64,000 nucleotides of DNA from Bacilli bacterium (GTDB lineage: Bacteria; Bacillota_I; Bacilli_A; RF39; UBA660): NCBI GenBank assembly GCA_017941235.1, contig JAGAWU010000049.1, positions 2,497-66,496 on the forward strand, read 5' to 3'. The number at the start of each line of letters is the position of its first letter. Position 1 is the stretch's first letter. Position numbers and translations under genes: made by a program. Below the pieces are notes generated by a model that worked only from the letters and a program-made list of their open reading frames with translations, did not search any database and had not been told where the DNA came from. Below are positions 1,550 through 23,439 of this stretch, in pieces.

Positions 1550-1578
1550 TTGAAAAAATATTTAATTAAGTATATAAT
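1550..1578 (+). promoter_or_regulatory. Sigma-A type promoter of yceD-rpmF
   Basis: TTGAAA (1550-1555), 17-nt spacer, TATAAT (1573-1578). Confidence 0.6.
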
Positions 1579-1597: not shown

Positions 1598-2071
1598 ATG
1601 GGATTAATAGATTTAAGTTTATTACATAGTAATGCTACTTCCGAAATTAAACTTGATGGTGTTTATAGTATTCCTAGTGAATATTATAAAGATACTGATG
1701 TTAAGAAGATTGATAATGTTTCTATTAAGGGGACAATATCAAGAGAAACTGATGATATTGATTTTGTAGATTGTGATATAAATGGAGTTATGATTTTACA
1801 AGATGCGGTTTCTTTAGAAGATGTAGATTATCCATTTTCTATTCACTTAGAAGGAAATTTAGAAGATTTTGCTACAAATTTTGAAAATACTCTTGATATT
1901 TCAGAGTTTTTGTGGGAAAATATTGTTCTAGAGATTCCCTTGAGGTTTACGAAGGTAGAGGATCTCAGTAAGTTTCATGGGGATGGATGGAAACTTGTTA
2001 GTGAAGAAGATATTATTTCTTCAAATAATCCATTTAAAGAATACTTAAAAAATAATGACGAAGAGGAGTGA
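1598..2071 (+). CDS. yceD: YceD/DUF177 family protein (partner of L32)
   Basis: Acidic protein of about 157 aa directly upstream of rpmF, which is the conserved yceD-rpmF arrangement. The C-terminal part has the ...LEIPLRF... motif region. Confidence 0.75.
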
Positions 2072-2075
2072 TAAT

Positions 2076-2291
2076 ATGATGAAATTAAATATTCAATTAT
2101 TTGCTGTACCATTCCGTAAAGTTTCTAAAACAAGAAAAAGAATGAGAAGAGCTCATAATGCAATGGAAATGCCTGGTGTTACTAAGTGCTCAAATTGTGG
2201 TGAAGTAATTAAACCTCATAGAGTTTGTCCAAAATGTGGTAACTACAAAGGAAAAGAAGTTGTTGTAAAAAATGAAGAAACAGAAGCATAG
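2076..2291 (+). CDS. rpmF: 50S ribosomal protein L32 with a 9-residue N-terminal extension
   Basis: [18 protein letters not shown] plus CSNCG...CPKCG are the L32 hallmarks. GAGGAG (2063-2068) lies 7 nt before ATG 2076. No start codon lies directly before the AVPF sequence. Confidence 0.9.
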
Positions 2292-21712: not shown

Positions 21713-21785
21713 ATTTATTTATATAAAAAGAGATTAACTCTTTTTATTTTTTATTTATTATGTTATTATTATTATGGTGATTGAA

Positions 21786-22196
21786 ATGAAGAATCGTAGT
21801 GAATTAAGAGAAATAGCAATGAAATGTTTATATCAAGTATATATAATGGAACCTACTAAACTTGATTATGATATTTCTGAACTTATACATGAACAATTAG
21901 AAGTTGAAAATGACTTTGTTAATACATTAGTTAATGGTGTTATTACTAATCAAAATAGTATTGATGAACTTGCTAATAAGTATTTAGAAAACTGGACTAT
22001 TGATAGACTTAATAAGGTTGATAAGGCTATACTTTCTATTGGTATTTTTGAACTTAAATATACTGAGACTCCTTCTGTTGTTTCTATAAATGAAGCTATA
22101 GAGCTTTCTAAGAAATATAGTGATGAAGCTGTTACTAAGATGATTAATGGTGTTTTAGATAATATTTATCATAATGAGGATATAGATGAAAGATAA
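21786..22196 (+). CDS. nusB: Transcription antitermination factor NusB
   Basis: RSELREIAMKCLYQ..., DRLNKVDKAILSIGIFEL, INEAIELSKKY. The ATG follows GGTGA. Confidence 0.85.
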   Translation: MKNRSELREIAMKCLYQVYIMEPTKLDYDISELIHEQLEVENDFVNTLVNGVITNQNSIDELANKYLENWTIDRLNKVDKAILSIGIFELKYTETPSVVSINEAIELSKKYSDEAVTKMINGVLDNIYHNEDIDER

Positions 22197-23439
22197 ATAT
22201 ATTACAGTTATACAACTTAGTAAGTATTTAAAATATAAGTTTGATAATGATGTTAATTTAGATACAGTTTATTTAAAGGGTGAAATATCTAACTTTAAAG
22301 CTCATTCTAGAGGACATTTTTATTTTACTTTAAAGGATGAAGAATCAAGAATAAATGCTGTTATGTTTTCTTCTAGTGCTAGTAAAATTAAATTTACTCC
22401 TCAGGATGGTATGAAAGTACTTGTTACTGGTAAGGTTACTGTGTATCCTCAAAATGGAGGTTATCAAATATATGTAAATGAGATGCTTGAAGATGGTGTT
22501 GGTAATTTATATATTGCTTATGAACAGTTAAAAAAGAAACTTGAAGATGAAGGATTATTTGATAAATCACATAAGAAAAAGATACCGTATATACCTAATA
22601 GAATAGGCGTTGTTACTGCTCCTACTGGTGCTGCTATTAGAGATATAATATCAACTATAAAAAGACGTTGGCCACTTGCTGAAGTAATACTTTTTCCTTC
22701 TTTGGTACAAGGTGAGTTTGCTAAAGAAGATATAGTTAAACAAATTAAGAGAGCAGAGGATTATAATCTAGATACTTTAATTGTTGGACGTGGTGGAGGA
22801 AGTATAGAGGATTTATGGGCATTTAATGAAGAAATAGTTGCTCGTGCAATATATGAATGCTCTATTCCTGTAATTAGCGCTGTAGGGCATGAAATTGATT
22901 TTACTATAGCTGATTTTGTAGCGGATATGCGTGCTCCTACACCTACAGGTGCTGCTGAGATTTCAGTACCTAATTTATCTGATGTAAGTAATTTAATTTC
23001 ACAAATTAATATAAGACTTAATAAAGCTATTTCTAACAAAATAGAATTTAGCCGTAGAAGACTTTTAGATGTTAAAAGTAGACATATATTTAAAGAACCT
23101 ATTAAAATATATGAAGCTAAAGAACAGAAATTTGACTTTTTAATGGAAAAATTAAAATTTAATATACTAAATATTTATACTAATAGATCTAATAGTTATT
23201 TAAAAATTAAAGAGAATATTATATTTAAAAATCCTAATGTATTATTTGAGAAGAAACAAAATGATTATTTAAGATTAATTAGTAAACTTGAGACACTTAG
23301 TCCATTATTAACAATTAAGAGAGGTTATTCTATTTCTAGAGTTAATAATAAAGTGATAAATAGTGTTAAAGATGTAAAGAAGAAAGATTTAGTGGAGATA
23401 GAACTTTCTGATGGAAAAATAAATGCGGAGGTAGTTTAA
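22186..23439 (+). CDS. xseA: Exodeoxyribonuclease VII large subunit
   Basis: OB-fold N-terminus, ...IGVVTAPTGAAIRDI..., GRGGGSIEDLWAFNEE. It overlaps the nusB stop. Confidence 0.9.
   Translation: MKDKYITVIQLSKYLKYKFDNDVNLDTVYLKGEISNFKAHSRGHFYFTLKDEESRINAVMFSSSASKIKFTPQDGMKVLVTGKVTVYPQNGGYQIYVNEMLEDGVGNLYIAYEQLKKKLEDEGLFDKSHKKKIPYIPNRIGVVTAPTGAAIRDIISTIKRRWPLAEVILFPSLVQGEFAKEDIVKQIKRAEDYNLDTLIVGRGGGSIEDLWAFNEEIVARAIYECSIPVISAVGHEIDFTIADFVADMRAPTPTGAAEISVPNLSDVSNLISQINIRLNKAISNKIEFSRRRLLDVKSRHIFKEPIKIYEAKEQKFDFLMEKLKFNILNIYTNRSNSYLKIKENIIFKNPNVLFEKKQNDYLRLISKLETLSPLLTIKRGYSISRVNNKVINSVKDVKKKDLVEIELSDGKINAEVV

Follow-up and report, generated by a model that had tools for sequence, protein, structure and literature searches.

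The window analysed here is a whole stretch of 64,000 nucleotides with a base composition of 26% G+C. The gene of interest is rpmF, which encodes ribosomal protein L32 (bL32) and lies directly downstream of yceD. The features of this locus, all on the plus strand, are as follows.

1550..1578, plus strand: promoter-like site TTGAAA-17-TATAAT upstream of yceD (11/12 consensus matches; consensus match only)
1598..2071, plus strand: yceD (DUF177; PF02620, 26.3 bits, below the gathering score of 33.2)
2063..2068, plus strand: Shine-Dalgarno (SD) sequence GAGGAG, 7 nt before ATG 2076
2076..2291, plus strand: rpmF, open reading frame of the L32 precursor, 71 aa plus stop (translation, gene callers, L32 profiles)
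2076..2102, plus strand: N-terminal extension MMKLNIQLF, nine codons, predicted Prp-type propeptide (conservation; identity to L27 propeptides; position outside the L32 models and solved chains)
2100..2105, plus strand: predicted scissile bond Phe9-Ala10, TTT GCT (P1 Phe and P1' Ala invariant in 118/118; L27 is cut at F-A by Prp, PMC9405229)
2103..2288, plus strand: predicted mature bL32 (AVPFRK...), 62 aa (PF01783 and TIGR01031 cover residues 10-63; aligns with residue 2 of solved bL32)
2187..2237, plus strand: zinc-ribbon cysteines of bL32, C38-x2-C41 ... C51-x2-C54 (translation; weak zinc-ribbon Pfam matches)

The product of rpmF is bL32. It is matched by PF01783 with 86.5 bits (cut-off 21.3) and by the NCBIfam model TIGR01031 with 87.2 bits (cut-off 22.6), both over residues 10 to 63, and it has the four-cysteine zinc ribbon and the yceD-rpmF gene order, the latter also being found in related contigs. 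Independent gene callers reported the same 71-aa product in six public metagenome contigs, each encoding the identical protein, including the 66.6-kb contig k141_461601 of ENA ERZ27256836. The stop codon of yceD (TGA, 2069-2071) abuts the 3' end of the L32 SD to give GAGGAG TGA, and rpmF itself ends in TAG at 2289-2291. The TTGAAA-17-TATAAT site is probably the promoter of a yceD-rpmF bicistron, judged by its match to the consensus in a region where the total count of promoter-like sites equals the shuffle expectation. Between the L32 stop and the next gene, in positions 2292 to 2366, lie a T-run, another promoter-like site at 2305-2333 and, at 2343-2356, a small hairpin. The promoter-like site in front of yceD and this succession of elements behind L32 suggest that yceD and rpmF form a separate two-gene unit. 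Across the 64 kb, zero Rfam families reached their gathering score, with rRNA, riboswitch and leader families all absent.

The L32 reading frame is unusual at its 5' end. The region leading into the gene reads ...GAAGAGGAGTGATAAT ATG ATG AAA TTA AAT ATT CAA TTA TTT GCT GTA CCA TTC CGT AAA, and positions 2040 to 2110 comprise AAATAATGACGAAGAGGAGTGATAAT followed by these same codons. The initial annotation held that no start codon adjoins the conserved AVPFRK and that translation begins at ATG 2076, and both statements stand. Codons 3 to 9 of the extension (AAA TTA AAT ATT CAA TTA TTT) include zero ATG, GTG or TTG, so that there is no start codon adjoining Ala10 (codon 2103-2105). The SD lies 7 nt upstream of ATG 2076, and ATG 2079, at 10 nt from the same GAGGAG, is an alternative that would shorten the extension to eight residues. 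The next Met after ATG 2079 falls within mature L32, and the upstream in-frame ATG 2055 lies within yceD and lacks an SD. The same start architecture is common to all 54 complete related L32 loci among the matches listed. In each of these 54 loci the core of the SD, AGGAGTG or GAGGTG, ends 3 to 9 nt (mostly 6) before the ATG at position -9, and the preceding in-frame stop lies 2 to 12 codons upstream of that ATG.

Annotation pipelines have not always placed the start in this position. The PGAP records P0125 (MBR6949100.1) and P0126 (MDO5392981.1) begin at an internal Met and give a 62-aa protein starting MFAVPFRK, which makes the nine-residue leader invisible in those nr records. Records of this kind speak for an artefact in which the true start adjoins AVPFRK and the extension is an untranslated leader, as does the presence of an ATG or TTG within extension codons 3 to 9 in 37 of the 54 related loci. 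In the window and the other 17 loci, however, extension codons 3 to 9 offer no alternative start, whether ATG, GTG or TTG. In the ...QMF variants (e.g., L075 and L086) the internal Met is located two residues before the mature Ala and about 27 nt from the SD, the latter being set 3 to 9 nt before the -9 ATG. In addition, the amino acids of the extension are conserved across related loci while the codons vary synonymously, and in relatives that truly lack the extension the SD has moved to directly before ATG-GCT. The SD geometry and the loci without an alternative start essentially exclude a start-site artefact, which we regard as highly improbable, and the internal-Met starts look like a systematic miscall of start sites by NCBI.

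Conservation of the extension was assessed in a set of 891 L32 relatives retrieved from a search of 5.8 billion proteins. The best 120 clusters, which are 70 to 97% identical, were examined, and 118 of these 120 carry the extension. Numbering outward from the predicted cut, the residues found in the 118 sequences are as follows.

P9: M 101; absent in 17 eight-residue forms
P8: M 76, L 39
P7: K 84, T 11, A 6
P6: L 117
P5: D 82, N 35
P4: I 116
P3: Q 117
P2: L 63, M 50
P1: F 118
P1': A 118
P2': V 118
P3': P 117

A genome scan with one representative per GTDB species and a degenerate DNA pattern for M-x-x-L-(D/N)-I-Q-x-F-A returned at least 119 loci. At least 55 of them are L32 with the extension (one is broken off at the end of its stored 8-kb stretch), at least 55 are L27 genes, and other or chance matches account for at least nine. 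In two contigs of Asgard archaeal MAGs (L092 and L124) the pattern is matched by MN(Q/E)FNIQFFA, but this stretch is internal to a longer ORF of unknown function and is in all likelihood fortuitous. The MAGs with extended L32 have 20 to 35% G+C and are labeled Bacilli bacterium, uncultured Tenericutes/Mollicutes, Mycoplasmatota, Mycoplasma sp. CAG:877 or Candidatus Fimihabitans, which is classed as Mycoplasmatota incertae sedis. A few bins bear other labels, such as Muribaculaceae or Clostridia, and all of the carriers found are uncultured. The alignment of orthologues that had been proposed as a measure of how widespread the extension is thus gives 118 of the 120 best clusters and at least 55 species-representative MAGs, and its presence in so many clusters and genomes excludes chance. 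This pattern of conservation shows that the extension is translated and that purifying selection acts on it strongly throughout a large clade.

The extension is nonetheless restricted to part of the L32 family. In a HMMER search of 1.84 billion cluster representatives, the best 150 L32 representatives were parsed by regex, and only the 11 or 12 nearest the query have the tag, forms such as MKLDLQLF-AVPARR included. The remaining representatives among the 150 begin M-A/P/G, and some resemble over-extended ORF calls. The confinement of the tag to the nearest representatives marks it as clade-specific rather than a general feature of L32. Solved structures agree with this distribution. All 40 distinct sequences of solved bL32 align their own residues 1 to 5 with residues 10 to 13 of the query, and in the closest ones (B. 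subtilis, S. aureus, and others) residue 2 is paired with query residue 10. The nine-residue leader is present in none of the solved bacterial bL32 among these 40, and a long N-terminal region, of about 78 extra residues, is seen in mitochondrial bL32m only. Residues 1 to 9 likewise precede position 1 of both L32 models.

Within the clade, two close relatives do without the extension. At L208 (P0100) the sequence reads GAGAGGAGTGAGAAA ATG GCT GTA CCA and at L209 (P0120) it reads AGAGGTGTTAAT ATG GCA GTA CCT, so that the SD stands directly before ATG-GCN-GTA-CC in both. Their mature parts are 88% and 82% identical to the L32 of the window, respectively. In a neighbor-joining tree of mature L32, in which resolution is low and the sequences are short, the extension-less sequences are interspersed among the extended ones, which suggests repeated loss or gain of the tag. 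Because these close relatives start at M-AVPFRK, the tag is dispensable for mature L32. Once their Met is removed, their N-terminus is exactly that which a cut between Phe and Ala would leave on the extended protein; this canonical N-terminus had been anticipated for a cut after Phe9, and it is borne out both by the relatives and by residue 2 of the closest solved bL32. The match fits a removable propeptide and argues against a functional segment that is retained.

Retention would mean that the extension is translated and kept, with a bL32 of nine extra residues being accommodated in the ribosome or adding a contact to it. Lineage-specific extensions of ribosomal proteins are common, and strong conservation by itself would also fit a retained functional segment. 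Against this stand the invariance of P1 and P1', the identity of the extension to a known removable propeptide, and the relatives with mature parts 82 to 88% identical that lack the extension and are interspersed with extended forms in the tree of the mature part. The leader is also hydrophobic and carries almost no charge, whereas the segment after it is basic and binds RNA. We consider retention unlikely, since the extension is identical to a known propeptide and extension-less relatives exist.

The propeptide in question is that of L27. In S. aureus, the L27 leader MLKLNLQFF-ASK is cleaved by the cysteine protease Prp, and an FF-to-AA mutant is non-viable (PMC9405229). The 118 extended L32 sequences and the L27 propeptides, including that of S. 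aureus, share the consensus L-(N/D)-(L/I)-Q-(F/L/M)-F then A. The resemblance that had been proposed between the two leaders holds: MMKLNIQLF is close to the S. aureus leader and identical to the commonest leader of L27 homologues from similarly labeled MAGs. When L27 was searched with a seed from a Bacilli MAG, MMKLNIQLF was found in 54 of 120 sequences, MLRLNIQLF in 32 and MLKLNIQLF in 11. In the genome scan, the L27 of MAGs labeled Bacilli, Tenericutes or Mycoplasma begins M(M/L)(K/R)LNIQLF then AHKKGGGSTSNGRDS. MLKMNLQLF, MMKLNLQLF and MLRLDLQFF are examples of the leaders on generic Firmicute L27, retrieved with a synthetic seed; about 110 of 120 of these L27 sequences have Leu and not Ile at P4. 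Ile at P4 is therefore less common among L27 and is shared by the L32 leader and this MAG L27 family, although the placing of extended-L32 genomes and the MAG L27 family in the same lineage rests on labels, habitats and a single same-MAG pair. Leaders of the form M-x-x-L-N-I-Q-(L/F)-F are also present on L27 of Acholeplasma (L072, L103) and Anaeroplasmataceae (L113, L136), and phytoplasma L27 (L069, L112, L115, L134, L163, L176, L186) has MLKLNIQLF; a Prp homologue lies directly upstream of each of these L27 genes, and their Ile at P4 was selected by the scan pattern.

The gene for Prp is normally encoded between rplU and rpmA. The comparison of L27 N-termini suggested by the initial annotation led to genes in rplU-prp-rpmA operons. 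In about 54 of the genome-scan loci listed, iterative searching identified the gene just before L27 as encoding a Prp homologue of about 100 aa, and four further L27 sequences of the MAG L27 family lie in an L21-Prp-L27 operon. Two of the L27-adjoining homologues match PF04327 (Peptidase_Prp) with 72.9 and 84.1 bits (cut-off 27), and one falls short of the strict equivalog cut-offs of the NCBIfam Prp models that it matches. The His/Cys dyad motifs of Prp (PF04327) are present in MAG CAKPIS01 and in the related L27 loci examined, and when the CAKPIS01 Prp is aligned with S. aureus Prp (4peo/7kld) and 2idl, its G-H-A and D-I-V-C-A motifs fall at the matching positions. The window has no prp/rpmA locus by six-frame search, and a six-frame regex search of the same 64 kb found no L27 or second tagged protein, L32 being the sole match to a loose pattern. 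Elsewhere in the window, at 21774-23439, two adjoining genes (140 and 417 aa) are 56 to 57% identical to genes of L085 and L132, whose counterparts sit 3.5 to 5 kb downstream of L27 in two Tenericutes-type MAGs; the neighborhood in the window is without L27, and synteny is broken.

Co-occurrence of the parts in one genome is provided by CAKPIS01, a MAG from Hadza gut. Its contig 11 (L135) encodes L32 as MLKLDIQLF-AVPFRK, with the presumed cut before AVPFRK, and its contig 1 (L174) encodes Prp followed by L27 as MLKLNIQLF-AHVKAQGST. This is the only same-genome pairing of extended L32, L27 and Prp among the matches listed. Comparison of P0142 and P0140 with the L27 look-ups by shared contigs, samples and coverage gave no overlap, and the L27 sequences P0253, P0160, P0317, P0333, P0285 and P0301 come from samples and species other than those of the window, mostly human gut. 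In CAKPIS01, the 5' regions of L32 and L27 share 23 of 27 coding nucleotides while their flanks are unrelated, which makes the test of an origin of the tag by duplication of the L27 5' end uninformative.

The identity of the protease can be weighed against these data. The extension might be translated and removed at Phe-Ala by an enzyme other than Prp, the likeness to the L27 tag then reflecting a shared different or alternate enzyme. An alternate protease is reported to rescue processing of bL27 in S. pneumoniae TIGR4 (2026 preprint, 10.64898/2026.08.10.744006), so that Prp need not be the only candidate. The weakly Prp-like ORF upstream of the long L27 of L068 points in the same direction. 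Canonical Prp with its catalytic motifs, on the other hand, adjoins L27 in about 54 loci listed, including a MAG with extended L32, and the motif of the L32 leader is the established Prp site (PMC9405229). Removal by another protease is an improbable explanation. Locus L068 itself (ENA ERZ1767644, 31% GC) encodes at 120-611 a long L27, MLRLNIQLF-ASKKG, that is followed by obg and preceded by a 163-aa ORF in place of the Prp of about 100 aa. This ORF has no Pfam match on record and is weakly similar to Prp by iterative search (E 2.8e-10), a likeness that is C-terminal by eye, with the GHA and DIVCA motifs not visible. From these features it may be a degenerate or remodeled Prp.

Taken with the start site, the conservation and the canonical N-terminus, the data make it quite likely that the L32 of the window is a precursor whose nine-residue leader is a Prp tag cut between Phe9 and Ala10 by the host Prp. 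In the proposed mechanism, precursor L32 would be translated from ATG 2076 (or 2079), and Prp would recognize L-(N/D)-I-Q-(L/M)-F then A. Its cut at Phe9-Ala10 would yield mature bL32 with the canonical AVPFRK, the residues with which the protein's long basic N-terminal segment begins. The N-terminus of bacterial bL32 is probably buried in the 50S subunit. By analogy with L27, the hydrophobic leader may block or delay insertion of this basic segment into 23S rRNA until it is removed. We infer the cleavage itself, the role of Prp as the protease, and a tie between removal and 50S assembly, whether as a requirement or by coupling; this tie is drawn by analogy with L27/Prp and with mitochondrial MrpL32.

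The nearest known counterpart is that of L27 and Prp (MEROPS C108) in S. aureus, S. pneumoniae and other Firmicutes. As in L32, a nine-residue M-x-x-L-(N/D)-(L/I)-Q-(L/F/M)-F leader followed by Ala is found on a small, basic protein of the 50S subunit. In both cases the leader falls outside the family profile, L32 models starting at residue 10 and L27 models at residue 9 or 10, and Prp is present in a genome with extended L32. Several differences should be considered. The carrier here is bL32, next to uL22, rather than bL27 at the peptidyl transferase center, and rpmF is not linked to prp. The cut in L32 is predicted, and what follows it differs, as Ala is succeeded by V-P-F in L32 and by S/H-K-K in L27; aligned from the cut, A-V-P of L32, with proline at P3', corresponds to A-S/H-K of L27, a point that counts against the Prp reading but is tempered by the many P2' and P3' residues of phage substrates.

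The tag is not confined to ribosomal proteins. The capsid protein gp47 and scaffold protein gp46 of phage 80alpha carry the same Prp site (PMC9405229), and in that system, as proposed here, one portable N-terminal tag is placed on unrelated proteins and host Prp is used, the carriers being phage structural proteins rather than a host ribosomal protein. Use of the motif by phage proteins in this manner, which the initial annotation had mentioned, extends to tagged head and scaffold proteins on low-GC phage contigs. An IMG/VR scan for M-K-L-(D/N)-I-Q-x-F-A returned 51 contigs (L017-L067), mostly of 25 to 35% G+C, with L021, L029, L033, L040 and L056 as examples of tagged loci. The tagged proteins are of many sizes, up to 878 aa, and begin MK(L/F)(N/D)IQ(L/M/F)F then A, with varied P2' and P3' residues. 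When seven of them were compared with PHROGs, four were major head proteins, two were head scaffolding proteins and one had no match. No viral contig matched the L32-specific pattern. No Prp homologue was found in the fetched parts of the tagged viral contigs, which are partial, and this fits use of a host enzyme, as in phage 80alpha. Both kinds of carrier are found in the mouse gut Bacilli MAG CARZYU01, which encodes a prophage head scaffolding protein starting MLSLNIQMF-AESE (L074) and an extended L32 starting MLKLDIQMF-AVPFHR (L100). FlhB, with MKLRVDLQFF, is a cellular carrier other than L27 and, like L32, has been proposed as a Prp substrate from sequence alone; it differs in being a membrane export-gate protein outside the ribosome.

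A precedent for N-terminal maturation within the L32 family itself comes from mitochondria, where the N-terminal region of MrpL32 has to be removed by the m-AAA protease before ribosome assembly (PMC5438985). MrpL32 (bL32m) belongs to the same ribosomal protein family and likewise loses its N-terminal region before joining the large subunit. The mechanism is different: an ATP-dependent protease of the membrane removes a 71-residue presequence processively and halts once it reaches the folded zinc domain, with no sequence-specific F-A site and no relation to Prp. Maturation of the MrpL32 type was considered for the L32 of the window and rejected, its leader being nine residues long with a sequence-specific site.

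A review of Prp substrates names L27 and the 80alpha proteins, with FlhB as a proposal, and mentions L32 only as exit-tunnel-associated (PMC9405229). The discoverers of Prp describe it, in a preprint of 2025 from their laboratory, as unclear whether the protease has other substrates. The initial annotation knew of no description of L32 as a Prp substrate, and a literature search that did not take in Wall et al. 2015 came to the same result, finding no link between L32 and Prp or between ysxB and rpmF/L32; Yutin et al. 2012 makes no mention of an L32 extension. Prp probably has a second ribosomal substrate, the hitherto undescribed L32, in a large group of uncultured gut bacteria with very high AT content, and on its sequence features the extended protein likely adds a new class of substrate to a protease-tag system that is already known. 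In cryo-EM structures, bL32 adjoins uL22, and uL2 is missing in all precursor states without uL22 and bL32 (PMC11723945). We consider it likely that Prp acts in the maturation of two 50S proteins throughout a wide group of uncultured AT-rich gut Bacilli/Mollicutes. One would be bL27, at the peptidyl transferase center, and the other bL32, which sits beside uL22 close to the root of 23S domain IV. The tag would then be a portable module that ribosomal, flagellar and phage head proteins acquired independently of one another and that has repeatedly been lost again.

Current work on Prp as a target for narrow-spectrum antibiotics presupposes that the protease has a single essential cellular substrate, L27. 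If the reading of L32 as a Prp substrate is correct, the tag would be a general, transferable maturation signal with a second substrate in a different part of the 50S subunit, and wider consequences of Prp inhibition would be expected in these gut lineages. For annotation, the finding exposes a start-site error in the NCBI pipeline, in which some L32 genes have been begun at an internal Met and the feature hidden. If Prp does mature both proteins, the purpose of the propeptide could not be specific to the peptidyl transferase center, and the long-open question of what the L27 propeptide is for would become testable with a second, structurally unrelated substrate. Close relatives with and without the L32 tag offer a natural comparison by which a role in assembly order, in quality control or in some other process could be distinguished.
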